DNA of 63,958 nucleotides, the filler included, from Licmophora abbreviata (lineage: Eukaryota), in assembly GCA_900291995.1 (NCBI GenBank). It is 16 parts of 16 records of this genome, joined end to end, with 100 filler letters (N's around TTAATTAATTAA, not from the genome) between each part and the next. Parts side by side here need not be neighbours in the genome. Positions count along the whole stretch, not along the records: positions 43,652 to 55,574 come from OLMU01000422.1; positions 55,675 to 58,539 come from OLMU01000423.1; 14 more parts are not named here. One strand, given 5' to 3'. Each line of letters opens with the position of its first letter. Within the stretch, counting starts at the first letter, position 1. Positions 11,857-59,575 of this stretch are shown here, in pieces. Both the position numbers and the translations under genes were made by a program. The notes under the pieces are model-generated. The model ran no database searches. It had not been told where the DNA came from and worked only from the letters and a program-made list of their open reading frames with translations.

Positions 11857-12896
11857 GAGGCTTCAGATGCAGACGTGATATTTTTAGCGATGGATGAACG
11901 TCACCACGTTATCAAGCGGGTCGCAAGATGATGATACGACTGCCGTTCTGGTTGTGTCAAANNNNNNNNNNNNNNNNNNNNNNNNNNNNNNNNNNNNNNN
12001 NNNNNTTAATTAATTAANNNNNNNNNNNNNNNNNNNNNNNNNNNNNNNNNNNNNNNNNNNNGTCGCAAGATGATGATACGACTGCCGTTCTGGTTGTGTC
12101 AAATGGGTATCCACGAGATCGACACACAGGCCGGTTCAACAAGGATTTCAAAGGCGCTAGACGTTCCTCAGCGGTGACGGCAGATCGCCAGGCGTTGAAA
12201 TGTGAACAGCGGTGGCGATTGCTTTATTGTGAAGGCCGTGAACCACAGAACTGGAGAGAACGCGACAACACGCGGTGTGATTTCTTTTGGCGGGGAATTG
12301 GATACCTTTTTCTACGCACTCGTTGGTATGTTTTCGCGTAGACCACAATACAATCAGTGAGATTGCGTACGACGTACATACGAGCTAGACTCGCACAACG
12401 GCTCTAGCCTACCAGGGGAGTATGAATTTCGCACCGCCTCCCATGCAGGCGCAAAGAGCAATCACGTACACTTTTAAGCCACTGTGACAGTGACTGGTGT
12501 TTACTTTCAGCACGTCTCACGAATAGAAGGGAGTGAAATTTGGCAGTTACCGCATGTAAGAAGTTCTTCAATAACTTGAAGAAATTGCAAGCCTACGCCG
12601 ATGAATACAGACCATCTCGAACGCTTGGTGTGAATAGCGACGGATGTCGGGATCTTGGCACCTCCTTTCAATTGCAGCACCTACTGTGGCGTGCGATTTT
12701 GGATAGCAAGGTACGAGGAGTAGCTGCAAGTCTGCGCTCTAGAAGCGACTTCTTAGTAATGCAGAAAAATATAAATAGCAACGTGCACCACACAATGGCA
12801 TTATGCAGGAGAGTGTTAGCGAGACGTGCTGTATCATCTTTCCCGGTACCAGTCCAAATCAACTCGCTGTCGCATCGATGCGCACTGGTGCATTCT

Positions 12897-29820: not shown

Positions 29821-30763
29821 ATGTTGACCGCAATTACAAATAGAGCTGCCTCCAAAGCTCGTTTGTTGGGTGTCCAGGGAGCGAAGATTGGGCGACTTGC
29901 CTCGACGCAGGCGCAGTCAGCGGCGGACGTTTCGTCGGCAACTGCGGTAAGCCCCCTGCTATCAATAGCAACGCAACTGGTTTTTTTCTTTCGCAATCAC
30001 TCATTCGCGGAAACATTTTTCACTCTCTGATGCTCTTTGTTCTCAGGGGGCGGAATGCCTGGAGAGACAAGCTTTTCTTCAAGAGGCGGCAAAGGTATGT
30101 CGACCGCCCATTGTCGCAGACCGCGTGGCATCTTGTTCATTATACGCGAAGGACTCAAATACAGCCTCATTTCTTCCTTATCTCATCACTTAGAACGAAT
30201 CCCTTCAAAATTCCATGGCCTACGCCTTGTCTTTTGCCCAAGACGACAACGACAACGGCCTGTCCTCAAGTCTTTTTGTCAGTGAGCCACACAGTGGTAT
30301 GCTACGACAGCTGGCCAACAGTCAAGATCAGCTCAAGAAACACGCATCTAATGCTCCTGCTACTAGTGACATTCGTCCGGTTTCAAATCGCAAGCTGCCT
30401 CGTACACTCCAAGATGCGTTGCGTCCTACCCATCGTCAAGCCATTGTCATTACGGAAACGCAAGCACCGTTCCGAGTCGTTGACGTCAACAAGGCGTGGG
30501 AGGGACTCTGTGGATACACGTACGTGGAGAGCGAAGGCAAAACTCTTGGATCACTGTTGAAAGGACCCGAGACGAATACGGCGACGGCGACGGCTCTCAT
30601 TGCGCAACTGCTGCGAGGAGAAGAGGCGGGTGCTGTACTCACCAACTATACCAAGACAGGGCGACGTTTCCAGAACCACCTCCGTGTCGGACCTCTTGTG
30701 GATGAATCCAATAAGGTCACGCATTTTGTAGGAGTTTTACAGGAGATTCCGGAGGGTATGTAA
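29821..30763 (+). CDS. LOV-like PAS-domain protein lacking the photoactive Cys, with a mitochondrial-type presequence; exons 29821-29946, 30047-30094, 30194-30763
   Basis: Two phase-0 GT-AG introns join in frame; PAS motifs AIVITE..PFRVVDVNKAWEGLCGY, LLKGPET, LTNYTKTGRRFQNHL, VTHFVGVLQ. Confidence 0.8.
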
Positions 30764-31204
30764 GAAGAGTGTGAGCAAAAGAAGAAGGAGGCAAGGCGAG
30801 TACGCGCTTGAGCTTTTCTTGTTTTGGCTATCATTGGATAAACGAGATATCGATGATTTATTTTCGCTTCCGTTAGGATAGAGTAGGTATCTATACGCAC
30901 AANNNNNNNNNNNNNNNNNNNNNNNNNNNNNNNNNNNNNNNNNNNNTTAATTAATTAANNNNNNNNNNNNNNNNNNNNNNNNNNNNNNNNNNNNNNNNNN
31001 NNCCAATAAGGTCACGCATTTTGTAGGAGTATTACAGGAGATTCCGGAGGGTATGTAAGAAGAGTGTGAGCAAAAGAAGAAGGAGGCAAGGCGAGTACGC
31101 GCTTGAGCTTTTCTTGTTTTGGCTATCATTAGATAAACGAGATATCGATGATTTTTAGTTTTATTTTCGCTTCCGTTAGGATAGAGTAGGTATCTATACG
31201 CACA
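30708..31204 (+). repeat. Near-identical duplicate flanking a gap (30708-30902 vs 31003-31204); probably two alleles
   Basis: Same sequence on both sides of the spacer, with two substitutions and a short indel. Confidence 0.85.
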
Positions 31205-31459
31205 AAGAGGTTGTAAACTGTGAAGCAGAGCTGTTGATGAGCCAAGAAAACGAGCTTGTGTTGCATGATTGTTGCAGAACAAGGAATAACGCTTCGCACC
31301 TGCCCCAAATCGTCGGTTCCGGATTCTGTCGTCTGGCCTTCCTCCTTCAGTCTTCGGATTTGCCTTAGCGTAGATCTCAGTACAGATTCTACAAAGCAGA
31401 CTCGACTGACTCGTCTTTCGCTCTGACTCGACTAGATTTGACTCACTTTTTCAACAACC

Positions 31460-42268: not shown

Positions 42269-43551
42269 TTATTTTTTGTCTGCTAGCTTTGTCTCTTCGG
42301 TCGCGAGGAGCCGCTCTAGCTGATTAACCAACTCAGTTGCATTCAATCGATCAAATGGATCAAGTTCGTACGATAAATCGATAAGCGTCGCCAACGCAGC
42401 ATCAACTGAGTTTGGCACGAGGTATATTTCGTGAATTGCTGGTTTGCGTCCCTGCTTGGCCATGTCCTTTACTTGAGATCCACTGTAGTCTTTCCATGGC
42501 TCCTCTCCTGTCAGTATGCTATACATGATATGCGAAACGCTGTACACGTCGATCTGCTCCGTGAGCTGACCAATCTCGTATTCTTCTGGAGCGCGGTTCC
42601 TTCCGGGGGCCGTGGGGATGCGGACTGTACAGGGTCGCCCTGTCTTGGTATCGTGTGGCATGAATCGACAGCGGTTGAAGTCGTTGAGTTTCACAATTCC
42701 AGAAGGATCTACAAGAAATTGCTTGCTCTGCACGTCCGCGTGGATGATAGGTCCTCCTGGAAAGTTGTGCATGGCCTCAATGCCGCGGGTCACGTCAAGC
42801 GACAGGCGCAGTCGTCCCAAAGATGTCTTCCTGCTGCGTCCTAGTTCTATCAGACTTTCGTCGTTCAGTTCGTCAAACAGGATCTTGTCAAGACTCAGAT
42901 CAATGTATTCGCTTACCACGGTGTTTCCACAGAAGCCGTAGATTGAGACAACGTATGGAGACGCAGAGAGGCGCTCCATTGTAAGCGCATCTCGTCGATG
43001 TCGATCCAAATTGCGCGAGTCGACGTCATGCTCTCCCCTCATGAGTTTCAGTACTGCATAACCATCACTTCCTTCTTGAGAGGGTATCTTCCAAACGTCT
43101 CGCCATAGGCCACTTCCAATGTAACGTGCTTGCTTTGTCCCACCGTTTGACAGCAGACCCAGGTCCTCCCTCATGTCGATTTCATGAATACTATTGCAGG
43201 TCGGAAAAGAATATGATTGCCAGTCCCTGAGTTCGCATCCACGCTGTAAGTGTTCGATTCCTTGCTTCCGACGGCCCCTGCCTTTCCCCATCAGGCTAAA
43301 GAATCCCTCCTTGGCATCCTTTGTTATTTCGAGCGCAGCGTTCCCCAGGGCACTTCGGGAGTCGCGATGCTTTTGAAGACCTTGCAGCTGTTTGTCATTC
43401 AAAACTTCGCCGTGCCGTATCTTGTGCCGTAAACGCGCTGAGTTCATTTCAAGGTCGTCCATGACGACCTGCCCTATAGTCCCAGTACTAATGTGACTGA
43501 TTCGTGTGACGAGCCAAAACAGAAAGCTGCAAAGCAATATCAAGGAAGACC
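42269..43551 (-). CDS. Membrane-anchored atypical kinase (PKDCC/POMK-like), paralog of 51142-52646; 5' end in gap
   Basis: N-terminal TM; C..DWQSYSFPTCNSIHE; IGSGLWRDVW, AVLK, IIHADVQSKQFLV, KLNDFN, RAPEEY, DVYS. Confidence 0.8.
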
Positions 43552-43651: not shown

Positions 43652-45324
43652 GTAGTGATACCAGCTGCTCTTGTGGTTGGCGTCACTGTCGATACCCGCA
43701 ACGCTGAGCGGAGTATGACCTCGCTGACGCCCCATGTGCCGATGATCGGTCCGTCCGTCTCCGTGATCTCTAGCATTCTCCATCTCCTTGAGCTCATGAA
43801 AAGCGACATTGTGCATACAATTGACGGGGCAAACAGATACCGCCAATGGAACATCTGGGGAACGACTCTGTTCAAACATTCTGGCCCTTCCGCTTTCAAG
43901 CAGAACGAAAGATGACGGGGCAACCGATACACACTGTGCGCAAGAGCAGATGGTTGAGTTAGTGTGCACCTAGCAAACGCAGAAATTCGGCATCGCGAAG
44001 AAACTCACCTGGGCGCACCCAATGCAAGATTCCTCGTCGATAAACACTGTCACGTCACATGAGGTTTAACAAGTGGGTAAGGACCAGCGAACACGAGTTA
44101 TTCGATTGTCAATGAACACATCATGTACGTACCGAATTCGCCATCCCGCATCCGAAGGGATGTCTTGGCATCCGATGCTAGTTCAACAAGCTCGTGACTG
44201 CTTTTTCTCTCCTCTTCTTCAAGGTTCATAGCCTTTTCCCATTCGAGAATCTCGCATTCGTCGAGAAGGGAGTCGAGATGCTGAGTCTTTAAAAGTGCCT
44301 CTTGGGCACTCGCAGAACCATGTTTCTCTCTCAATTCGGCAGCGACCTGTTCTCGCTCAAACTCAACAGGTAGGACAATTCCGTGTTGACGGATGTCACG
44401 AAAGATAGTTTCCACTGTCGGAAGCTTCTCCTTGCCACGAGTCTTTGCTGCAATGGGTAAGTTCATGCTCGTTTCGAGGGCGCGCAAGTAGAGCTCTTGG
44501 AACTCTTCTTCCGACAGATGACCACTGCCATGAGTCCCGTAGGTTGCTATCGATGACAGAACACGCTTATCATGCAAACTAACAACTTGATTCTCTTCTT
44601 CCCAGAGGCACTTGGTCATCCAATTTGCCAAGCTCGAGGCGTCTAATACAGCTTGGCCGCTAGCTTCGTGGTACTTGGCATGACTGTGAAACATACTCGA
44701 AACGGCTTCACGAAAAAACACCGTTGGCATAATCGATCCATCATTACCCTTTTTCGCCAACTGGCTAGGATCATTCCGTTCCTCATCCGTCAGGGGCAGC
44801 TGGACCCGACCCTCGCCCACTAGCATGTCTTCCGGCATGGTGTTGCAATTGACCAGCATGCTTATCTCCTGACCCATTTCGTCCTCGAAGCTAACCCTCT
44901 GTGTATTAGACTCTAGCCCAGTATCATACAGGCGGGAGTCATCCGATGAAGTCGAAAGGAGCCCATGGTTCTGTATGTGATCGACAGCGTCCTTGAGCCA
45001 CTCGTCGTCGTCGTTGGATGATTTGTTCTGTTTCGTTTCACCCTCCATTCTAAGAGCAGCGCTGGCAGCTAGGTCCAGGTTGAACAAGTCCTCAGTGTCC
45101 GGAGTGGCATTTTCGGGATGCTCTAAAGACAGCGACGACCAGTCGTCTTCGATTGACCAAGAAGACTTGGTGACCTCCAGGGTCAGCAGCGAATGTTCTT
45201 TCGGAATGTTGGCACCAAACGCACGCGAGTCAAGGGAAACAACCCTGGATTTCGGAGCAAAGGAAGAGCCAATTTCAAAGATAGCGGCGGTACATAGGAC
45301 CATAAGTCCAATTTGATCCATCAT
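43652..45324 (-). CDS. Plastid-targeted protein with a degenerate EF-hand and a C-terminal Fe-S ferredoxin domain; 2 introns; 3' end in gap
   Basis: Signal peptide ending GSS-FAP; spliced VFIDEESCIGCAQ|CVSVAP..VSVCPVNCMH (CxxCxxC..CP); GSGHLSEEEFQELY. Confidence 0.8.
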
Positions 45325-45735
45325 GGTTTTGGAGAGTCGACTGATGTTCTTTGCCAATCGTTTTCGCATCGCCGTGGTCGAGAGCCAAAGCCATCACCAT
45401 GGTTTGATTCGATGCGCTTTCTGCTGGTCGAAACTAACTTGATTCTCCAGCGCAACGTTTCAGTCGGAATCGACTAAATCGCATGCTCGCTATGTGACCT
45501 CCAAAACGAGAGACCGCTTGATTTTATGTTCTGCCCGTCCGCATACGACAGCTGGGGTTCGCAAATTTGATGGCAGGTTCGCAAAAAACGTCACACCAAA
45601 GAACCGACGCCCAACCGGCTAGCTAACACGTTCTGATAGGTATTGCCGAAGCAATCGTGCCCATGTGGGTATGCGATGAGCGTGACACATTGTTTCTCTA
45701 ACCTACGACTCTAGCGTCATTGTTACTGTGTATGC

Positions 45736-48578
45736 CTAAAGCAGGTAATCCGACAGCGGCAAACCAACACTCGCCGCCACAGCTTCCGCCTCATCGCGGC
45801 TCAACGAGCACCAGAACTTGGTCGAGTTCACATTGACGGACGAATTGGTAAAGGAAGACCCTGTCGTCTCGTGAAGTATCCCACTTTCGCGGAGCTGCGC
45901 AAGGTTCTCAAAGAAAGGCGTCGATCCCATAGAACGGACGTAGTCTTGCATATCCAGACCATCCTCACACAGTGGCAACAAGTCATCGTTCTGGTTTAGT
46001 CCAACAATATTGACAAAGACTGACAACATACGCTCCATGGGAAATAAGCGAGGTCGGATCATCTTTAGCTGCTGCTGTTCCATCGTGGTGGTACCACCGT
46101 ACGCTGAATTGGCTTGCGAAAAGTGATGGAAGTTCTTCGTCTTCTTCTTGCTATTCTTTTGAATCGTGAAGAGCCGTTTGTCCTTGTCGGGCTTGTTGTG
46201 CTGACAGATAAAAGCAGATAGTAAAAGACACTTGCTAAGATAAGAAAGCTCGTGTACCTTGGAAGCTTCTTTTCTTGTCTTCAAATCGCTTGCAAGAGAA
46301 AACAGGTTAGCGTTGATGCAAGACTTCATGCGGGGAAGAAGTTTTTCGTCTAGGAAGACTCGAACTTCCTTTTGAAGTGCGGCATGGGAAGGTGGTGCCG
46401 AGTCATTCGGAGCAATATCCACAAGACGTTCGCGAACAGCCCGTAGAGTTTTGCTTGCGCGATCTGGATGAAGAGGTTCGATGTAGACCGTCCACATTTG
46501 TCGACCTATACGAATCATCTCGCGCAGGTCTCGTGTAATTCCAAGCAGTGACTGGATTAGTGTGTCGAGAAACGACGAAACAATCAGCTGTTTGGTAGTA
46601 GTCTGCTCGTGTCCTCTTTCGGGGGCAGTATACGAATCTCCGACAACGAGCGGGAGAACACTGGGATGTTTAAGAATCTGAGGACGGACGTCGAGAGGCA
46701 TGTCAGATGAGACAAAAGAAAGAGGGCATCAACCCTTTCCGAAGAATATATCTTACCTCCTTGAAAGTGTCTTTTCCTGCGTAGGCTGCGAAATGAACAC
46801 GGATTGGCCTCACAGCGATCGAAACGATACCCAACGCCTTTTCCACGGATACATCATTGTTGATGCGAGAGCAGTCCAGCATTGTGTTCGAGGTTATCAC
46901 GATAACCGTCAAGTTCAGGCCATACACTTTCGGGAGGAGCAAAAGCTGCGATAAGTAGTTGTTGTTCTCCATTGCCTTCTGAGAGCCGAGAGAATGCAGC
47001 CGCTCCGCATGATCGAGGACAAGAAAGGCGCATCCAGGGCGTTTCCCACCAGACAAATAATAAGCGTCGGCACCGAAGAATGGCAAGAGAGCCTTGCCAA
47101 ACGCGACCGTCGCCAGATTGGAAACTCCTGAGCCTCGATTCTTTTCAGGACCGACAGAGTGCTGGATCCCCCGACTCTTGATAAAACCTGATGTCGCCTC
47201 CTGTGGGACCGACTTTGCCTTTCGCGACAAACTCTTTCGCCTGCTTGACTCGCTCGTATCCTGATTGCTGAGCTCTTGGCCGAGCTGGGCGCGAGTCTGT
47301 TCAATCCTATCCTCCATCGCTTCCATTGCAGCCTCGTCCTCACCGTCAAAATCAGCATCAGCTGGCTCGTCAATCGCCTCCTCAACGGAAGATTCCCTAG
47401 TCGAGTCAACATTTCTGTCCCCGATCGCCTCCATAGCGGCAGCGTCCTCAGACTCGACGTTTGCACGCTCCTCCAGTCGGCTTTTCTTTTTCCGCGGAAG
47501 GATCTCGATTGAGCGAGTTAGTCGAATCAAGCTTCCTCTGTTTTGTAGAACTGTCACGAGAAGAGACTTTCGCTTTCTGCTTGCTACGTTTCCGCTTCTT
47601 TTTCTTCTTGCTCTGCCGGCGGGACAGGTCGTCATCCATGACTTTTGTGAGTTGGGAAAAGGCGCTCCTCACAATAGCGTCGAAGGAACACGGGTCAACC
47701 GTCGAGCAGTTGACATAGGCATGTTCGACAACGGGTTGCGCTGGGCTGTCCATGTCGAGAGCTGAAGTATATTGACGTTTTGTCGATTCTAAAGCATCCA
47801 GGACAATAGAGGTCTTTCCTGTCCCGCTTGGTCCAGTCACAAAAATGGGCGAGGGGACGTAGACATCCTGCGAGGCGACAGGGGCATCCGACACCGCTTG
47901 TGCCATTGACGATCCCATTAGACTGGTTAACAAGCGTATCTGTGTTTGTCGGAACGGGTAGCGGTCCTGCAACCGAGTAGGATCAGTCGATGCCAAATAG
48001 CGCATGCCACATGGATCTTCCCGACAGCTTGCAATCTCATTGCGGGATGTAGAGAACAGCATTCCGCTCTTCCTATTCGCAACTTCGCTTATGACGCTTT
48101 CCTCATCGCTGATCTGGGCTTCGAGCTCAGGTGAATCATTCTGTTTGGCAAATCCTAAAGATTCCCGAAACGCATTTCGCCTTGCAATGTTCCGGGCACG
48201 GCGTTCCATCAGCTCCTTCGCCATGCTCGCCATCTTCTTGGCGTGACCATCCAAGAGACCACAGGATGAATCGTCATCAGTATCCCCGCCTTCGGAGCTG
48301 AGAGAGTCCCCAGCGCTTGCTGCTGCGGGTTCATCGTCGGAGTTCTTCTCCTCGGCATCAGAACCAAGTTCGACATTAGTAGCCTCAAATCTGGGTTGCG
48401 TTAAGACATTCCCAATATCAACGTGCAGCGCTGCCGTTTCCTTTGACTCTTGACATGTAACTCCTAGGGCTTCCTCGCCTTCAGTTTCCTCTCTGGACCG
48501 TTGCGATGAAGGCCGCTCCTGCGTGAAAAAGTCTGGCACATGCATTGTCGCGCTGTCGCAACTATGATCGCTGTCCAT
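45736..48578 (-). CDS. ORC5: Origin recognition complex subunit 5; intron 46678-46756; apparent frameshift at about 47490
   Basis: RYPFRQTQIRLL, IFVTGPSGTGKT, AYVNC, LVLDHAERL; C-terminal LSKCLLLSAFICQHN..DKRLF, PRLFPMERMLSVF, VAASVGLPLSDYL. Confidence 0.88.
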
Positions 48579-48860
48579 ACTAATTTCGTCGGATAGGATA
48601 TTACTTCGTATGATGCTATGATCAGCAACGAGGACGGCGGGTCTCGGGAACTGGTGATAAGGTAGAGAAAGTGTTCAGTCAAGCTGCGGCAAGTTTCCAT
48701 CATCCTCGAAGGTAGTGCGCAGATATTTTCTGGTACAAAATTCAGGAGAGCGCGAGATCATGCGACATCATGGATGACGACGACGGTGAGAAAAGGGGCC
48801 GATTTAGTTGAATGGAGACATGACACAGTGTCCTGTTCGTTCTAGGAGAGTCTCAGCGCA

Positions 48861-50142
48861 ATGAATATTCCGAGGGAAAGAGATGATGAGAAGGAGCGGA
48901 GGCAACGGAATTCATTGTTTCGTTCGCGGTTTGGACTGCCTGTTGGTAGTTGCAACTCATCGGTAGCAGCATGGTTTGTTTTGGGATTTCTTCTGGACTC
49001 CACTGACCTTACCACATGGGGGACAACAACGAAGCCGTCCGTGGCTGCTGGTACAAACGAGAGTGTTTCCTTTTCCTTCGATCAGCACAAGAACGACGAG
49101 GTCGAAGGTTCGATGAGCCACTCATGTGCCGGAACAGAAGTGCACTGGAGTATGAACCTATCGGAAAGCTTATGTCATCCAAGAAACAAGGCGACCATGG
49201 CAAGTGGCGACGGAAGTTTCTCGCTGCGCTTCAGAATAACCTCCCACGGAAAGTCTCATCGTGAATGGATACAAGCCACGCGGCGATCTTGACAATACCG
49301 TCCCTTATTCCCTCCGACTCTTCGACTGGTTCATACTGAGGCCTTCGATCGAGAACAAAACAGATGATCCGAATCCCCAATCTATATTTTGCGATGTTCT
49401 GATGATAGAGGAATGCTGGAATCTGGTTCAGAAACTGCCTCCTCTTGATGCCAGTGGAACCCGAGTGATTGCGTTTGGCGATCATGACCGTCCCTGGTTG
49501 ACCAAGTGGGAAGAGAGGGCCATAAGCTTCCGAGATAGCAGACAAATCTCCAAGGTATTGGCCGTGAGCAAAGACAAGCGCATTCCCGGTGTTTACGCTC
49601 TACCCATAGGCCTCAATACGCTATACATTCAAAACCTGTATGGACCTGAAGGACTCTTGGAGGCTACGCGGACCGCATCGCTCGATTCCAAAACAAAATC
49701 GGTTCTCGCTGCGTGGGGTGCGAGATTCGAGCGGTTGGACGATCTGCTCATGTCGCGCCAGCAAGCGAAGGCACTGTTCACGAATGAGAGTTGCGTGGCT
49801 CCTCGTGTTATGCTGAACAAAAAGGAGTACTTGAGGGAAATGTCAAAGTATCGTTTCATGATTTCCCCAACAGGGAATGGTATTTTTTCACCAAAAACGA
49901 TGGAGGCCTTACTCGTGCTAACAATACCAATCCTACAGCGCGAACCTGATGGTGGGGCTTGGGAAGATCTACGTGATGAGTACGGCTGGCCAGTAGTGAT
50001 TGTGGATAAATGGGAAGAAGTGAATGCTGCCAACTTGACCCGGTGGTGGAAGGAACTCGCACCGACACTTCACCAGGGCCGAATGAAGCTACTGGCTGAC
50101 CCTTGGTTCGACACAGTTATGAGAACCCCCTCTAGTAGTTAG
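48861..50142 (+). CDS. Exostosin/RXYLT1(TMEM5)-like glycosyltransferase with weak N-terminal anchor; one or two frameshifts at about 49135-49260
   Basis: ALPIGLN; YLREMSKYRFMISPTGNG..KTMEALLVLTIPIL..WPVVIVDKWEEV resembles the exostosin C-terminal pattern; hydrophobic SVAAWFVLGFLL in the upstream ORF. Confidence 0.65.
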
Positions 50143-50360
50143 TATAATAGTACTCTCCTAGCTGGTTACTAGGTACTTGTTCTGCTTCGCGTGTTGGATC
50201 TACTTCCTCACTCAGATTTGAAGTCGCGGAAGTGCTCTTGTCCAACCGCACATGGTACCGGTGCCACAAAAGGTAGAAGACGATACGGTCATACACCGAT
50301 TCAATCGGGCCGGAGAATGTCACACAGCGCCTAAGCCAGAATCGTCTTCTTTCGAGTCAA

Positions 50361-50603
50361 TCAAAGGAGAAGACTCGGTCCCCTCTCCCAGTTTTGCTCG
50401 CTTCTTGGCCTCGCGGTGTGCTTTTCGCTTCTGTTTCCGAAACGCGAGTCGTTCATCGTACTGTGGTTTCTTCTTGGTAGCTTCCTTGATTTCTCGCGAA
50501 TGCTGGCAACTTTCTCAGCACTCTCGGGTCCGTTCTTCCATGCTGCCTTCCGATATTCACCTGTTTCGACTCGTCGTAATAGTAGCAACTCGTGGACCTT
50601 CTT
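50361..50603 (-). pseudogene. Degenerate duplicate of the TRM11 3' end (paralog of about 55707-55910)
   Basis: EYRKAAWKNGPESAEKVASIREK vs EYEKATWKNGPESAEKVANIREK; clear DNA similarity with indels; rest of the gene absent. Confidence 0.92.
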
Positions 50604-50638
50604 GTTCGGTCCCTTGGTGTATGCGTGCTACAGGGAGC

Positions 50639-50734
50639 AACAGCCTCGCTGGCACGTTTCCCGAACAAGTGGCGGCTTTACCGCTTCTGAAAGCTATCGA
50701 TCTGTCCATCAACGATATTGGTGGACCTCCTCCC
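50639..50734 (+). pseudogene. Orphan leucine-rich-repeat exon fragment
   Basis: NSLAGTFPEQVAALPLLKAIDLSINDIGGPPP matches the plant-type LRR consensus NxLxGxIP..L..LxxLDLSxNxLxGxIP; preceded by ctacag; no full gene around it. Confidence 0.65.
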
Positions 50735-51141
50735 AGGGCCCTGGCACTTCCAGTGTATTGAGTTTAATGTGAAACACCCGCCAAAACGCAAACAAGATGC
50801 CACCCGCGCCGGCCGCTGAAAGATATGTCTTATTTGTGTCCTTGCTTCCATAAATATTGTGTCGTTTTCAACTCATCATCAGAACCATAATCAGTGACGT
50901 GCGAAGTGCGTCCGTATACTTTGTATCATGCCTGGTATCCCTGATGGCAATACGTAGTTGCTTAGAAGTTGCGACTTTCATTTATTTCCACAAGTACCAG
51001 GGTACTCCTTCCGTTGAAACTGTGTCCTCTCTCTCTTGTCACGGCATTCTTCCAGTCTATTTCTTATTCTAGTAGCTGGCAGCTACTTCAGAGGTCTTCA
51101 CATTTTCCAATATTTCGCTTCGACATAGCATAATCCGTACG

Positions 51142-52646
51142 ATGCAGCAACGCAAGAGTTGGGGGGTCACGGAACAAACACCAACCTCGACTCCCACGAG
51201 TGCACACAACAATAAGTCGTTACTACCAGCACAGCAGCCATCACACGAGCAGCCCAAGGAACGCAATTGTCATCATCGTTGGCGCAATGCCTGGACCCGA
51301 CTAACTGTGGTGCCAACAGTGTGGCCGTTGCGAATCGTATTCGGAGTACTCTTGGCCACCGTGTCTTTGTATTACTCCATTTCCATACATCATACCAGCC
51401 ATCGAGCACTGCTAACAATTTGAGTAGGTTGACCGAGACTGCCGCGAGAATGAACGAGCGCCCAAAACCCCGTGTCATGGGATATTACTTTGGGGGAGTC
51501 AGTGCAGAGCGACTGTCGGGCTCGAACGTTACCGCTAGATATACCGACCGAACAATTACAGTTTCAAAAGATGAGCTAGAGGGCCAAGAGCGTCTGCAAA
51601 ATTCAGAGGACTATCAGAGCCACTTTGTCCTGACACCCGTGGATGAGGAGGGTGGAGATTGCAAGGCACAGTATGAATGGCAAAAGCAGTCTTTTCCAAC
51701 ATGCAACATACTACACGAGCAAGACTTGACACATCTCCAACCCGAACACAGCGGGCCGGTGCCAGTACGTCTTTTGGCAAATGGATTCTGGAGAGAAGTA
51801 TGGATGGTACTGGGCGCTAGTAGCATGGGCATACAACAACCCAAGTATGCTCTCAAGACACTTCGATTGGGGCGGTTTGAAAATGTCTTTGCTCCACACA
51901 CGTATGAGCGGCAGCGCCGAGATGCAGTCGCTATGGAACGGCTGAGTCGTTCCCCCTCTATACTCGATATTCATGCGTTCTGTGGCACCTCTGCTATAAA
52001 TGAGTTTGCACCTACTGGTACTCTTGAAGACTATCTCTGGTGGAGAAAGAAGCGAGACGTGACTCTTCATGAAATACTCGTGGCATCTTATCAAGTTGCA
52101 CGAGCAATAGCCGACGTACACAACCTGGGAGAGGACACTCGTCCCGCTGCCATTGTGCACAAGGACATTATGATGAATCAGTTTGTACTCGTGGATGGAC
52201 AATTCAAGCTGAACGATTTCAATCTCTGTCGTTTCCTCGCATGGAATGGCAAAACAAACGAAACATGTGGCTTTCACACTGATTCGAACCAGGGACAGCT
52301 TCGGTCTCCAGAAGAGTACATGTACGAACTGGAAACTGAAAAGGTAGATGTATACAGCATGGGAAATATATTCTACTCTCTACTGACGAACAAGTGGCCG
52401 TTTAGCAACGAAACGCTAGAGGATACAAGTTTACTTGTAATGCAAGGAAAAAGGCCACCGATCCCGGACGAATTGAAGACGAGTGCCGACCCAGTCCATC
52501 GTTCGCTGCTGCATGTGATTGAAAGATGCTGGCAACAGATCCCAAAGGAACGAGCCACATCCAAGGAAATTGCTGCCTACCTGCGAAATCACGCAGAGAA
52601 GGCAGGGCCATTGCCCGAATCGTCCGTATTTTACATTAAGGACTAA
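51142..52646 (+). CDS. Type II membrane atypical kinase (PKDCC/POMK-like); frameshift at about 51375-51420
   Basis: TM IVFGVLLATVSLYYSI in ORF 51142; C..YEWQKQSFPTCNILHE, LANGFWREVW, ALK, IVHKDIMMNQFVLV, KLNDFN, RSPEEY in ORF 51267. Confidence 0.82.
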
Positions 52647-52731
52647 TACCAGGTACTAACTGTTCAGAGCTTCGACTTCCGTCGTGTTCATCATACACAG
52701 ATCAATTTCTAATATAGTTTGAATCAAAATT

Positions 52732-54600
52732 CTAAACATCTAAGATACGAACATTGCTGGTTCTCTTGCGAGTCTCTGATGATGTCTCGAAAGACTGCGA
52801 GAGAAGTTCGACAGTGAGCTCATCATCCTCGGAAGAAAACGAATCTTCTTCCGTGGAATATCCAATGCTGCTACCAATCTTCTCGTCTGGCTGGTAGAGC
52901 GTCTTCGGGGCAGTAATATACGCAATGGACTGGTGAAAAAGCGCGTGGTAGGCTTGTTTCCAGATGGCGCAAGAGTAAAACAGGAAGGAGGCCAGAGGAC
53001 TGAGGAAGGGATAGGCAACAAGTAGCAAAAGTTGACGCCACATGGCCATGTGCATGTAGTGCTTGCGATGAGACAAGATGACCTGTCGCATTACCATGTC
53101 ACGGATGATGGCCCGGATGGCAGTGTAGACGTAGTGCGCAAGCTGAAAGCCTAGAAACAAGCGAACAGACGACAGGGCAAAGAGCTTCCAAACCTGTGGG
53201 AACAGCAGGACCACCCAGCTGGGCACAGCTCCTGGCATATCCAAAGACAAAATGAACTGCACAAGATTCAACCAGGTACGTAGTCGAATCACTGGAAACA
53301 AGGAAAATGTCCATGGAATGAGTTCGATGCACCACATGTGACGCTTGGCTTGAACCCAGCGATCGCTCATGGAGCACACCGAATCGTTGAGAATGATGGA
53401 CCAGACGCGAACAAAGGTCGCCGAGCCTTCTCCGGTAAAGCACATGGCCTTCATGTTGACACCAACGTCCTCTGCGATGACACCGGGATCCCAGTAGTTG
53501 ATTTGATGGGCGAATCCCAGCGTCAGAGCGTAGTTGGAGAAGGCAATGGGCGGGTCTCTTTTCCAAAAGAGTCGATAGTTGCATCGGTTGATCTCGACCA
53601 GCTGCACAAGAAGATTGCAGAGAGGTGTGTTGCGATACGTGTTGACAGGAGTCTCATAGATGCAACGACGCCCATCCGGCTGACGACAGAACTCGGCCTC
53701 GAGCTGTTCGAGAAATACCGAGTCAAAAATGCTGTCAGCATCACAGACGGTAACCATGACATTGAAGTGGTCCAAGCCCTTCTCCATGGCGTACTGGTAG
53801 AGCTCTCGCACTGCATAGTTCTCGTTGGATCCCTTTCCAGCAACCTCTCCAGGCTGAAGAATGTGGCTGGTCATAATAAAGTCTTGAAAGCTATGACCAT
53901 ACTTGTCGATGAGGAGTCTGAACTTTTCGTGCGCCGACTCGTCGCGTTCTTCACACGCAAAGACGACAACGCAAGACTTGGAGAGCGTTGTTTCCGCAAG
54001 GCTCTCTACGCAGGCTTCGAGCACATCCAGTGGTTCCTTGTACTGACACAACACGACGGCATGAGTGAGGCGGGGAATATCTGCCGGAAGTTGGACCCTC
54101 TGGAGTCCTTGCTTCAACATTTTCATCGTGCATGCGTCGAGGAGGAAGTCAACGATCACCCGGAAGATCAAGATAGAGGCAATCAAGATAGAAGCTAAGT
54201 GCTGGTACGGTACCAGGCGCTCTGAAGTCTGTTCAAGGGTTTCGGATAGGGCTGGAAAGATCACAGTAGCCGTCAAAACAGTGAGAATCAAGTGCCCCAA
54301 AGGCAGGGCAATAACCCACTTGATAAATGAACGACTGCCGTCAATACTAGGAAGAGTGAGACGTCCTCGAGAGTACTTGGCTTGAAACAAACGGTCAATG
54401 AAGCTTGCAAGAGGCTTGGCAGAGGTTGAGGAAGACTTATCAGAAGAAAGGTTGTCGGGAAGAGAAATATCCTGCTTTAGGTCTTTCACTACAAATGACG
54501 GGTCGTCCCTCCCGAGTTTGCGTCGGCGGACTGCGCCTCCTGGAGACACTCCCGATCTCAGGTTGAGCGATCCTCTCGTGTCTTCACCACGACGCTGCAT
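52732..54600 (-). CDS. Multi-TM processive GT2-family glycosyltransferase
   Basis: YKEP, AGKGSN, VCDADS (DxD), VIAED, QAKRH (QxxRW-like); TM segments on both sides of the GT-A domain. Confidence 0.82.
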   Translation of the reverse strand: MQRRGEDTRGSLNLRSGVSPGGAVRRRKLGRDDPSFVVKDLKQDISLPDNLSSDKSSSTSAKPLASFIDRLFQAKYSRGRLTLPSIDGSRSFIKWVIALPLGHLILTVLTATVIFPALSETLEQTSERLVPYQHLASILIASILIFRVIVDFLLDACTMKMLKQGLQRVQLPADIPRLTHAVVLCQYKEPLDVLEACVESLAETTLSKSCVVVFACEERDESAHEKFRLLIDKYGHSFQDFIMTSHILQPGEVAGKGSNENYAVRELYQYAMEKGLDHFNVMVTVCDADSIFDSVFLEQLEAEFCRQPDGRRCIYETPVNTYRNTPLCNLLVQLVEINRCNYRLFWKRDPPIAFSNYALTLGFAHQINYWDPGVIAEDVGVNMKAMCFTGEGSATFVRVWSIILNDSVCSMSDRWVQAKRHMWCIELIPWTFSLFPVIRLRTWLNLVQFILSLDMPGAVPSWVVLLFPQVWKLFALSSVRLFLGFQLAHYVYTAIRAIIRDMVMRQVILSHRKHYMHMAMWRQLLLLVAYPFLSPLASFLFYSCAIWKQAYHALFHQSIAYITAPKTLYQPDEKIGSSIGYSTEEDSFSSEDDELTVELLSQSFETSSETRKRTSNVRILDV

Positions 54601-54679
54601 TTTGACATACGCGATCCGTTGGGTATGTTGAGGGGTAAATTATGAGAAGGCATGACGCAGTGTTAGCACCATATTCAAA

Positions 54680-54828
54680 AAGTTCAATCCATAAGTCACA
54701 AGCTGAGTGAGATGGCGCGGGTGAGTTAAGTTCAATCCAGATTTCACAAGCTGAGTGAGATGCCGCCGGTGAGTTAACCATTCCAGAATTCAGAAGTCAC
54801 AAGCTGAGTGAGATGGCACGAGTGAGTT
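54680..54828. repeat. Three-copy tandem repeat, period 48-53 bp
   Basis: Core TCACAAGCTGAGTGAGATG..GTGAGTT starting at 54696, 54744 and 54797. Confidence 0.92.
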
Positions 54829-55086
54829 TCAAAGTTGAATGAGTCAGTCGGTCATTATGTTTTCTGCGCACATTTACCGTGATATCATACATCAGCATAC
54901 TATACCACCGGAAAGCCGGGTGTTGTGACAAGTTGAAGTTAAAGGCGAAGAAAGTCTCTTGGGCGCGATGACTTTTGGGTGCGCGGCAGCAACCTTTTCC
55001 TCTCACGGCAACGCGGGTATTACCGTACCTGTTACTCTCAAGCGCTACTCATGACCTGTAACTACTACGATACGATAGGGTATCCC

Positions 55087-55315
55087 CGCCTTCAGTTTCC
55101 TAGATCGCGGCGGTGAAGGTTGCTCCTGCGTAAAAAAAGCTGGTACATGCATCACCGTCGAGCTGTTATTGTCGCTGCTGCAATCGCTGTCCATGCTGAC
55201 GTCGTCTTGCTTGAACAATCAATCGCCCGTCGGATATGACCAGCGACTAGAACGGGTCTCGGGAGTCGGTGCTTTCTCACGTAGAGAATAGTTAAGCCAA
55301 ACTGCGGCGAGTCTC
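55087..55315 (-). pseudogene. Degenerate duplicate of the ORC5 5' end and upstream region (paralog of about 48476-48697)
   Basis: Translates as MDSDCSSDNNSSTVMHVPAFFTQEQPS vs ORC5 MDSDHSCDSATMHVPDFFTQERPS; shared DNA blocks cgccttcagtttcct, atcgctgtccat, cgggtctcggga. Confidence 0.85.
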
Positions 55316-55674
55316 TGCTGTCTCCTGCTAAAAGGGCTCCTTGGTCCTGATTGGCTGATTGGTCGCCATCAATTCAAAAGTAGGGTCTCTCGCGCAGCGC
55401 ACGGGCTCAAAGCCTTCGACTTCGACATATGAAGCTGAGCATCTACTAGCACGAAATAGTACCCACCATATCTAATGAATGTCGTATCACACACCTGCAC
55501 GGATGTGAATCAATCCAAGCGCGATACATTCGCAGAGGGCTACTAGCTCTAGGCTATGTAAGCTTCAAGCCAGCNNNNNNNNNNNNNNNNNNNNNNNNNN
55601 NNNNNNNNNNNNNNNNNNTTAATTAATTAANNNNNNNNNNNNNNNNNNNNNNNNNNNNNNNNNNNNNNNNNNNN

Positions 55675-57320
55675 ATCGTAGGAGGAGACCCAACCTTCTG
55701 TTCCACTTTTGCTCGCTTCTTGGCCTCGCGTTGCGCCTTTCGCTTCTGCTTCCGAAACGCCAGACGTTCCTCGTACTGTGGTTTCTTCTTGGCAGCTTCG
55801 TTTATTTTCTCGCGAATGTTCGCCACTTTCTCAGCACTCTCGGGACCGTTCTTCCATGTTGCCTTTTCATATTCACTCTGCTTTGACTCGTCATACTCGT
55901 GCACCTTCTTCAGTGCCACCATACGCCGTCCAAGGTCGGTTGTCTGCAATGGCTGGTAGCAGACGTGTACTATCTCGAGGCACTCGTGGTGTGGCAAGTC
56001 TGACGAGACGTCGAAGTCTGAGAAAGACGGGATGATGTACACAAGTCTTCCGCCCATGACCAGAGTACGAGCCGCCACGTCCAGTAGATCAGCCATGACA
56101 TCAGACACGGGATACGGTCTTGTCTGCGCAATGTGGTCGTGTCGATGCTCCTCCAACACTCGTCGCGGCTCGTCCAGTCGGGACCCTGACTTTCGAGCTC
56201 CAGCACGGATCCCGTAGGGAGGGTCGGTGACAATAGCGTCGTAGAGGGGCGAATGAGATCGATAGTGACGCGGGTAGATTGCATTGTCGCTGCGAATCAG
56301 ATCTGGTCGCGGCAGATTCTGTTGTCTAAAGTTGCTCAGCACATTCTCTTCTTGACTTCGTCCTCTGAGAACACGAATGTCGATATCTGTTCCCACGCAA
56401 TACGCACCCCGAAGCGCGCAGGACAGCAATATGGACCCTGTTCCGACGAACGGATCAAATACAACGGTTCCTTTTCCCACTTGAGCAAGATTGGACATGA
56501 TAAAGGAGAGCTCAGCGTCCATGGACGTGGGTCCCAAGTAGCGTCGCTTCTTGAGGCTATATTCGTCTACTCCACCTCGTCCCTTGAGATTACGGCTGCC
56601 ACCAAGCACCCTTCCAAAGTAAACTCCCAAAGGCGGTCGCGCGTCATTTTCTGGTATCAGCACCTTTTCGTCCTTCGTTCCTACTCCATGACGAGGATAG
56701 AGAGGACTACCGCGCGGATCCAACTGGACTTCCCGAATCAGTATCAAGTTATTCCATGGATCTTTCATTCTCACTGGTCCTTCAAGGTCCAAGAAGGAAA
56801 ATTGCTGTCTCATGGCATCCTGTTCCTCTCGAGTATACTTGGACCCGAGAGTGTGTACCGTGATCTTCCAGCTGTGTGTCGGCTTTGATCGCTTGGCAAA
56901 GACATGACGACCCACTGTATCCTCTTTCACCCACTGGTTCACATCTGAGACACACGATCCGATGGATGTGCCCCGTCCCCACAGCTCCAAGACACTTCTC
57001 ACCAAAGTACATCGACCGAAGATTCGTCTGATACTCCTCCGCTCGTTCTCGTCGTCGTCGTCGTCGCCGAGCTGAAACAGTGTCCCTCGAGCCTCCGGTG
57101 GAAACGACAGTATACAGAATGGACGCACAGTACCATCATTGTGATCAAACTGGTTGGGGAGCGGAATAAATTTGCAGCAACCATCATTGTTGCTGTCGTC
57201 CAAGACGATGCCGCTCATCTCCAGGACAGAACAGAGCTCCGCGCGTTGAAAATCCGCATGACGCACTGCGAATTCTACCAACAGATTGTAGCGATTTTTG
57301 GGAATGCTCAGCGTTGACAT
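55675..57320 (-). CDS. TRM11: tRNA (guanine-10-N2)-methyltransferase Trm11; stop codon in gap
   Basis: YSLKKRRYLGPTSMDAELSFIMSN, VFDPFVGTGSIL, DAIVTDPPYGIRAG, LLDVAARTLVMGGRLV. Confidence 0.93.
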
Positions 57321-57585
57321 GGTTTTACTAGGGATTGATTCTAATAGTTTCCAGGGGAACGCTTCGCAGTCGGTCAAGCGATCTTCAGCAGAGCCTCATG
57401 GTCTAGCTTCAATTATCGTCGGGGGCGTCGGCGTCTAACTTCCTGGCCGCCAACCGTCAAAGCTTTTACCACACAAGTCTGTTGCTCTCGCATTCGCATT
57501 TCCATCGCGACGATGTGTGCACTATACATAGTCTAGCGCCTATCCTTGAGAACTGGCGCTCTCAGCGTGATTGCGTATCCCTCAA

Positions 57586-59575
57586 ATGACATCAGTTTCC
57601 GGTCAGAAAGGCAAACTGGTAGGCAGAAGGATAGCAGCAGCCCTGGTGTGGCTACACGCTTCTTTTGTCAATGGCAAACTTGGGGCCGATGGCGGAGCCT
57701 TTGTCGGGTCTCGACGGCTCATCAGTTTCCGCCCGCGGTGCTCGACCGTTCCTTGCCACCTTACCCCGTCAGAAAGAGACAATGAGTCGCTAGAGGCTGT
57801 TCAATCCATGGTGGAGTTTCATGACGGAAAATGGCAAGGCAGAGCGACTTCATTTACGGTCTCTGCCGATGTGGCTGCTGGTATCCTCCGACGCAAGGAG
57901 TCCCCGGAGTATCGCTCATCCGTGAAGCTAGGCATGTCAGACAGTAGAGAACTAAGCGTGTTTGAAACCTTTGAATGGGACGACAAGATATCGTCACGCT
58001 CAACGTCGTTGATTCAGTCCAATTTTGATGTCGACTCGGTGGACGCTTCCTATTCTCTCGACATGACACTCCCCAACCTACCTGCAGAACTCACTGGGAC
58101 CAACGCTCTACTTCAGTTTGGCATTGAACACTGCATCGCCGTCAGTGATGACGAACGGGTACGCTGCTTTGTCTTGTATGGAGTTGATCAGTCTTTGGCA
58201 CGTGTCGTCGTGTGTGACGAGCGAAAAGTAAGAGAGGACGACGGTGTGTCATCAAACTCAGGAGAGGATCTACTGGCCCTCGATAGCGATGTCGATCGTA
58301 TTGTAGACAAGATTGCAGGGCAAATTCAGGGAGAGGGATCATCGAAAAGTCCAGCGTCTCGCGATAGCAAGGGGTCTTCTGACGAGAATAAGTGGAGTCG
58401 ACTCCAAAGTTCCATGTCCTCAACGACGTCGAACAAAGGCGACGGCAACGACCTGGCACGCCATCCCATGAGCCTACTCGAGATCACATCTGGCATATGG
58501 TTGGGGGACAGCATCATTCGGGACATTCCTAGCGTAAGGNNNNNNNNNNNNNNNNNNNNNNNNNNNNNNNNNNNNNNNNNNNNTTAATTAATTAANNNNN
58601 NNNNNNNNNNNNNNNNNNNNNNNNNNNNNNNNNNNNNNNGTCGATCGTATTGTAGACAAGATTGCAGGGCAAATTCAGGGAGATGGATCATCGAAAAGTC
58701 CAGCGTCTCGCGATAGCAAAGGGTCTTCTGACGAGGATAAGTGGAGTCGACTCCAGAGTTCCATGTCCTCAACGACGTCGAACAAAGGCGACGGCAACGA
58801 CCTGGCACGCCATCCCATGAGCCTACTCGAGATCACATCTGGCATATGGTTGGGGGACAGCATCATTCGGGACATTCCTAGCGTAAGGGCAACGCCGTTC
58901 GGCACGGGGAGTGGTTTCGGCGACGGGCCCAAGAATGACAAGCAGGACACTCCAAGTGTGTCTGGCACGGGCAGGTCGCAGCTTGCAGGGTGGGAGTTGG
59001 GTGTTCAAAAGTCGGCATGGCAATGGATCTGGGACTTCGGTTCAGAAATTCGCCAGCAACATGATACTGGAAAAGTGATGGGATCTGAAATGGCCAAAGA
59101 GTTGTCCAAGTCGCTATCTGGGTCTGTGTGCGTCAACGAGAGTCTATCGAGAAGGATACCAAAAGAATCTCGAATGATCTATTTCGACTGGAACAACGGT
59201 GACTACGTCGGGTCTATTCTCGGATCTGTCTCGATTCAGGTATGATGGAACGGGGTGACAATAGACTGCATGCTGCCTGAGATGGCGGCTGCATGCTGAT
59301 GCGGCATCAAACCTTATTTTGACACTTCATTGTTGCTTCGCTCTGACGGCCAGGTACCTCGCTTCATCACATTCAATCGTGCCGCTACCAAGAATGTCAA
59401 GCCATTCTTTACCGAGGTTTGTGTGTTTCAGGCGTCTTCGGCGAGAGAAAACGAGCTACCAGACGTCTGCTGTTCGAAGATGGCTCGCGTCTACAACTTT
59501 GAAGGCAAGCTCAAGCAGGGATGTACCGCATTTTACACGCTCAATCGTTTCGGCGTGGAAGAAGATACACAATAG
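57586..59575 (+). CDS. Uncharacterised protein with targeting peptide and possible calycin-like (DUF3598-type) beta-barrels; crosses gap, one intron near 59241-59353
   Basis: Two similar motifs HDGKWQGRATSF and TSGIWLGDSII; hydrophobic N-terminus; CAG|gtatga and ccag|GTA splice sites. Confidence 0.55.
58291..58888 (+). repeat. Near-identical duplicate flanking a gap (58291-58539 vs 58640-58888); probably two alleles
   Basis: 249-bp overlap with four substitutions seen. Confidence 0.88.

Follow-up and report, generated by a model that had tools for sequence, protein, structure and literature searches.

Pack-MULEs and Helitrons are gene-capturing transposons, and they leave gene fragments beside intact genes, as is also seen at the locus of the diatom Licmophora abbreviata described here. 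Unlike those elements, this locus is flanked by no detectable terminal inverted repeats, contains no transposase among the scanned ORFs and has no second copy of any flank in the genome; a test for gene-capturing transposons found no terminal repeats and no termini shared by several copies. Tandem duplication-random loss (TDRL), a process described for mitogenomes, leaves decaying gene copies at its breakpoints as its trace, according to the excerpted account in PMC5569537. The Licmophora locus resembles that account in its apparent head-to-tail duplication, the survival of one copy per gene, decaying remnants at the breakpoints and an altered gene order; it differs in being nuclear and in that the ancestral order of its middle genes is missing, which leaves the full path beyond reconstruction. 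Serial translocation of cattle KIT via circles, as outlined in part of a review (PMC3420103), would also be expected to give a direct duplication bracketing other DNA. Here, in contrast, there is no donor locus and no permuted order, the scale is 7 kb rather than ~500 kb, and one of the two stumps apparently accumulated its divergence while still functional. Segmental duplications attributed to circular DNA in humans likewise have the junction of the duplication inside genes, but in the excerpted text of PMC7450558 they are non-tandem and flip A-B/C-D to B-A/D-C, whereas the copies here are local and collinear. Judged by titles and the start of abstracts, no literature on the diatom ORC5/TRM11 locus was found, and our search for extrachromosomal circular DNA integrating into diatom genomes turned up no such event among the papers listed. 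The locus offers a clear, datable example of diatom gene-order reshuffling around an old TRM11-ORC5 linkage, and it also cautions that finding genes bracketed by a direct duplication is not, in itself, a demonstration of integration.

The locus lies within a stretch of 63,958 nucleotides from assembly GCA_900291995.1 (29.2 Mb in 7734 contigs), hereafter the window, which consists of contigs joined by N spacers. Contig C422 (OLMU01000422.1, positions 43652-55574) carries the intact ORC5 gene and the remnants of both ORC5 and TRM11, while C423 (OLMU01000423.1) opens with an intact TRM11 gene whose stop codon is absent from the contig and falls inside the intervening assembly gap (55575-55674), the true size of which is not set by the assembly. 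From left to right, the order is ORC5, a GT47/RXYLT1-like gene, the TRM11 3′ remnant, an LRR scrap, a protein kinase, a GT2-like gene, a tandem repeat, the ORC5 5′ remnant and TRM11. Self-BLAST of the window, a self-comparison proposed with the initial annotation, reveals only two duplicated segments once the overlaps at gaps and the tandem repeat are set aside. Both are direct: 48465-48697 matches 55076-55315 (the ORC5 arm; 67.7% identity, E = 1e-12), and 50365-50578 matches 55680-55895 (the TRM11 arm; 84.7% identity, E = 2e-61). Local alignment pairs 48446-48697 with 55047-55315 (score 179; best of 100 shuffles, 39) and 50360-50603 with 55675-55910 (score 308; best shuffle, 38), bearing out the gene order and both remnants as initially annotated.

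The arms are adjacent and directly oriented, with the right-hand pair depending on scaffolding across one gap: the ORC5 remnant closes C422, and TRM11 opens C423. The DNA between the arms, 1.66 kb on the left versus 259 bp on the right (55316-55574, the end of C422, without a counterpart in the left copy), gives shuffle-level scores of 19 and 26; aligning 48690-50400 with 55300-55574 gives 26, equal to the shuffle mean, and reveals no shared interior. Because this interior is unshared, the duplication comprises two arms, with no visible duplicate of the junction itself, and part of the right interior falls in the gap. The earlier statement that the ORC5-5′/TRM11-3′ junction occurs twice in direct orientation is confirmed for the arms only, and the right-hand junction crosses the gap. 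A DNA search with 48300-55600 across the assembled genome matches only itself and TRM11, and eight intergenic pieces searched by tblastx and short-word blastn yield no other remnants. The duplication, which involves two housekeeping genes of a marine diatom, is a real, old, locus-specific scar of a known and ordinary kind, and it gives no clear evidence that a DNA circle was inserted.

Assembly error could in principle create such a pattern, either from two haplotypes or through a chimeric join, most plausibly at the gap at 55575. The assembly is fragmented, some neighboring contigs in the window overlap allelically at gaps (95-100% identity by self-BLAST), and no environmental contig bridges this gap. 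The remnants, however, are 68-85% identical to their counterparts and frameshifted, a divergence far above that of the gap overlaps or of environmental alleles (~99%), in agreement with the earlier view that they are not allelic overlaps; moreover, a single contig holds both remnants and ORC5. The locus is also present in wild populations. Fifty-one metagenome contigs align to C422, drawn from four of the seven runs matching the stretch (three studies, with one run possibly related to the assembly’s source), and most are at least 99% alike (32 of 51 itemised). No RNA run is listed among those that match. Environmental pieces at 49974-50325 and 50233-50457 connect the 3′ end of the GT47-like gene to the TRM11 remnant, and another at 50458-50699 connects the remnant to the LRR scrap. 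Since contigs at ~99% identity bridge both of its edges, the TRM11 stump is not an assembly artefact, and its gap-free environmental coverage (50320-50576) with the same indels indicates that its frameshifts are real. One environmental run differs from the assembly inside the ORC5 remnant, at 55217 and 55247, so this remnant is covered there as well. None of the aligned pieces spans the whole block or runs past the end of C422, and no joints were seen among contigs of four of the seven runs, where depth is too low to carry weight. We regard an artefact as highly improbable.

TRM11 (55675-57356, minus strand) has no other full-length copy in the genome and encodes a tRNA m2G10 methyltransferase, with a Pfam match to the UPF0020 methyltransferase family and an identity assigned by named homologs. 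The closest homolog is 68% identical, the best with a species name comes from Fragilaria crotonensis (62%), and the species-named homologs are diatom proteins, in keeping with a diatom host that lacks any closely related sequenced species in the database. The TRM11 remnant (50320-50603, minus strand) extends from approximately codon 483 to its own stop codon at 50320-50322 and contains frameshifting indels. Across 70 codons, it differs from intact TRM11 with dS of 0.34 and dN of 0.12 (dN/dS 0.37), where a fragment that was dead on arrival would change neutrally at all sites and show a pairwise dN/dS of at least 0.5. In columns conserved among 120 homologs, we count 3 differences that alter the amino acid, where a dead-on-arrival fragment should have 10-15, and at the strictest conservation threshold we count 1 where 6-7 are expected; simulation of the conserved columns yields P values of 0.005-0.034 in all six settings. 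The test covers 75 codons under a simple substitution model, a small sample for which we grade the evidence as moderate. A 65-codon core, picked post hoc, differs by 12 synonymous and 8 non-synonymous changes (P up to 0.024), while all 75 codons under one uniform model give no significant result (P 0.11-0.50). The TRM11 remnant was thus probably a complete, functional gene while it diverged and was truncated only later. The paucity of amino acid changes at conserved sites would make the cut end a later deletion rather than an integration boundary, and divergence as a working gene speaks more for a tandem duplication whose copies were reciprocally lost than for a Campbell integration of fragments in one step.

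ORC5 (45736-48578, minus strand) likewise has no second full-length copy in the genome and matches Pfam ORC5_C above the cut-off (E = 1e-23). Its reading frame switches at 47448-47668 with no convincing intron, and tblastn with the homolog P0184 hits three frames; the switch is probably a sequence error or an allele. The gene’s description as intact is tempered by this frame switch. The left copy of the ORC5 arm (48446-48697, minus strand) comprises the first ~44 codons and 118 bp of upstream DNA, and the ORC5 remnant (55047-55315, minus strand) retains the start codon, ~44 codons and upstream DNA. Two of its indels are in-frame and two are frameshifting, and it matches the intact gene at 105 of 130 aligned coding bases and 79 of 114 upstream bases. 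Differences fall 7/6/10 by codon position over 39 codons, which indicates no bias in a poorly conserved N-terminus. The duplicated upstream DNA, at 69% identity, is no better preserved than synonymous sites and provides no evidence of promoter capture by the GT2 gene.

To place the arrangement among relatives, we reduced 588 pattern matches in metagenome contigs to four TRM11-relative loci, two of which are near-identical. TRM11 and ORC5 abut tail-to-tail in locus L010 and are convergent with an LRR gene between them in L012. In L011, ORC5 was not found downstream, and TRM11 instead lies head-to-head with the window’s next gene after ORC5 (44101-45393); L013 is too short to show the position of ORC5. 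The two genes are therefore near neighbors in two of the four loci (two of three distinct ones), convergent and never head-to-tail. None of the four loci has a match to the kinase or the GT2 gene, and none of the relatives found is close enough to give the pre-event order. On the evidence of these contigs, the TRM11-ORC5 linkage is old, and, from the three distinct loci, the head-to-tail order in the window is probably derived. The proposal that TRM11 and ORC5 were ancestrally adjacent is thus upheld as to proximity, although the genes lie tail-to-tail where they are neighbors.

The explanation we favor, with a probability of approximately 0.6, is that a local tandem duplication took place long ago and that reciprocal loss then left one copy of each gene. 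A block containing at least the 5′ end of ORC5 and a complete TRM11 would have been duplicated head-to-tail, with purifying selection acting on both TRM11 copies for much of the elapsed time (pairwise dS ~0.34). The center of the array would then have been hit by deletions that took away the 5′ portion of the left TRM11 and reduced the right ORC5 to its 5′ end, leaving a working copy of each gene on the outside and stumps, most likely without function, facing inward. The kinase, the GT2 gene and the LRR scrap may have belonged to the original block and lost their second copies, or may have relocated to the redundant center. This course of events is consistent with the direct orientation and reciprocal survival, the single-copy status of ORC5, TRM11, the GT2 gene and the GT47-like gene, the presence of decayed remnants (for ORC5 and TRM11 only), the shortage of conserved-site changes in the TRM11 remnant, the native appearance of the middle genes and the locus-specific 48-bp repeat; decaying pseudogene copies are, in the excerpt of PMC5569537, the described trace of TDRL. 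Against these points stand the at least three deletions required should the block have included the middle genes, the lack of any trace of second kinase, GT2 or GT47-like copies, a selection signal that comes from 75 codons and a simple model, an ORC5 remnant with no codon-position bias and a pre-event order seen in no close relative. The selection signal is also fitted equally well by a diverged donor haplotype.

The most economical course, with the fewest events, would be a one-step insertion from the same genome, in which a circle integrating in Campbell fashion, or template switching, copies only the ORC5-5′/TRM11-3′ segment, placing 4.5 kb of cargo between the copies, and neither remnant ever functions. 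Both remnants terminate at the borders of the middle block, no second cargo copy sits beside intact TRM11, and the relevant part of PMC3420103 describes circles that returned to the cattle genome with duplication. The depletion of conserved-site amino acid changes in the TRM11 remnant nevertheless runs counter to a fragment that was never functional, the assembled genome contains no donor locus, the interior between the arms is unshared, and the permuted donor/acceptor order, given in the excerpt of PMC7450558 as diagnostic of a circle, cannot be shown at this locus. We consider such an insertion unlikely. The initial annotation had offered Campbell integration or duplication-associated insertion of ~4.5 kb of cargo; its duplication-associated origin survives, while one-step integration or templated insertion of gene fragments alone is disfavored by the selection signature. 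That signature would be explained without long coexistence of two copies if DNA from a diverged haplotype or a sister lineage with the order ORC5-(GT47)-TRM11-LRR-kinase-GT2, arriving on a circle or by unequal crossover, had integrated into the resident ORC5/TRM11 segment and the incoming TRM11 had been truncated afterwards. The ORC5/TRM11 segment would then have served as a landing pad for the kinase and GT2 genes, in an introgression via a circular intermediate in a diatom nucleus, and both the missing donor locus and the missing second cargo copies beside TRM11 would be accounted for. Yet homologous recombination would presumably have been needed between sequences already at dS of ~0.25, no further diverged duplicate occurs in the 64 kb, the single-copy ORC5, TRM11, GT2 and GT47-like genes speak against a second subgenome, and the donor lineage was not found, nor is there independent support for such integration. 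We judge this reading unlikely as well; if the remnants did come from another lineage, they would show that homologous integration can bring diverged DNA into a diatom chromosome.

The GT47/RXYLT1-like glycosyltransferase gene (48861-50142, plus strand) is single-copy and has a catalytic ORF at 49240-50142. Its match to Exostosin_GT47 (PF03016; E = 0.001) scores 18.9 bits against a gathering score of 33.4 and is below the cut-off, but the ORF falls with RXYLT1_C-like clusters in the atlas, and, by sequence, the predicted product is a distant GT47/RXYLT1-like protein. The catalytic ORF is out of frame with the ORF upstream, with homology starting at 49240, right after an in-frame stop, and nearly all canonical introns that could join the two would remove conserved sequence. 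The environmental contig carries no repairing indel, and the gene is possibly a decaying pseudogene. A second frameshift further upstream is suggestive only, as the frame in the middle reaches just 2.2 bits, a score that many of 1350 control pieces exceed. Relatives of the ORF number 777 at an E value of 0.001 and 13 at 1e-30; among the 17 top relatives checked, those with species names are two from Alexandrium and one from Stephanoeca, with no named diatom. In the tree, the ORF falls in a 13-row clade with two near-identical Alexandrium rows and has a transcriptome protein as its own sister; the support is too thin to claim lateral transfer. The window contains no decayed second copy, and the annotation of this gene as lying inside the left copy only is true of the assembled DNA, bordered on the right by an unsized gap.

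The LRR scrap (50636-50743, plus strand) spans ~1.5 repeats. An HMM built from eight LRR C-terminal segments, seven from this genome and one from L012, finds it as the sole match in the window (i-E 0.007), and it groups with LRR_1 clusters at 0.97 in the atlas, which confirms the initial annotation even though Pfam gives no match. The idea that the scrap represents the 3′ terminus of a gene oriented away from TRM11, such that one deletion took both 5′ ends, is unsupported: a C-cap HMM of 15 segments ranks it 9625th of 9971 scored chunks (12763 given).

The tandem repeat (54680-54828, unstranded) consists of three copies of a 48-bp unit and is unique to the locus in the genome. The GT2-like membrane glycosyltransferase gene (52732-54603, minus strand) is a single-copy open frame with a Pfam GT2 match below the cut-off. 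Its family yields 63 matches with up to 51% identity, whose named members are from Seminavis, Nitzschia, an Amphora cluster and Symbiodinium; in a quick tree search, it sits on a long branch within no starred small clade. Single-sequence queries, which detect close relatives only, find no viral-contig relatives of the GT2 gene or the GT47-like ORF. GC3 is 0.49 in the kinase and 0.60 in the GT2 gene, both at the margins of the values for eight other frames (0.53-0.60), and the assembled genome, though incomplete, contains no second copy of the kinase-GT2 block. With host-like GC3, diatom relatives, no donor copy and no mobile-element marks, the middle genes, called cargo in the initial annotation, look native. 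The protein kinase gene (51142-52646, plus strand; Pkinase E = 1e-18) has at least 37 family matches in this genome, the closest at 51%, and comparison by eye of the neighbors of this closest paralog (C5807, C5808, C5810 and C5811) shows no link to the locus. The gene contains a 1-base frameshift near 51407, where one environmental contig has an extra base that opens a 501-codon kinase frame.

The gene at 44101-45393, which lies downstream of ORC5 (45736-48578, minus strand) in the window and has no Pfam match, has a counterpart (L011:2314-3669) arranged head-to-head with TRM11 on a metagenome contig. Since this gene adjoins ORC5 in one setting and TRM11 in the other, gene order suggests an ancestral three-gene neighborhood that was later reshuffled. 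Single-copy ORC5 itself switches frame at 47448-47668, inside a low-complexity insert, and no convincing intron was found to explain the switch. Among the near-identical environmental contigs listed, coverage falls outside this interval; the switch is likely an indel error or an allele.

The nearest species-named relatives of the GT47/RXYLT1-like gene (48861-50142, plus strand) are Alexandrium proteins (43-47%), and the 17 matches looked up include no named diatoms. Atlas clusters resembling the gene are for the most part viral, and its reading frame is disrupted near 49240. From these relationships, transfer or patchy retention is possible. A 179-codon open reading frame (50222-50761, plus strand) runs antisense to the TRM11 remnant and extends into the LRR scrap. 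Because long antisense frames are common in the window, it probably arose by chance.

The kinase of the block between the two remnants (51142-52646, plus strand) is frameshifted at position 51407 in the assembly, and one environmental contig (depth 3) lacks the frameshift. Another kinase of the same expanded family, with ~35% identity to it, lies 8 kb to the left (42272-43459, minus strand). Directly upstream of GT2 (52732-54603, minus strand), three copies of a 48-bp unit (54680-54828), found nowhere else in the genome, form a possible promoter element. Two GT2 relatives deposited as Symbiodinium (P0136 and P0157) share a clade with diatom members, a placement that could reflect transfer or contamination.

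Contig ends overlap across gaps with 95-100% identity at 58291-58888, 30708-31205, and 11920-12103. These ends are allelic or redundant, and the overlaps show that the neighboring contigs there are genuinely adjacent.
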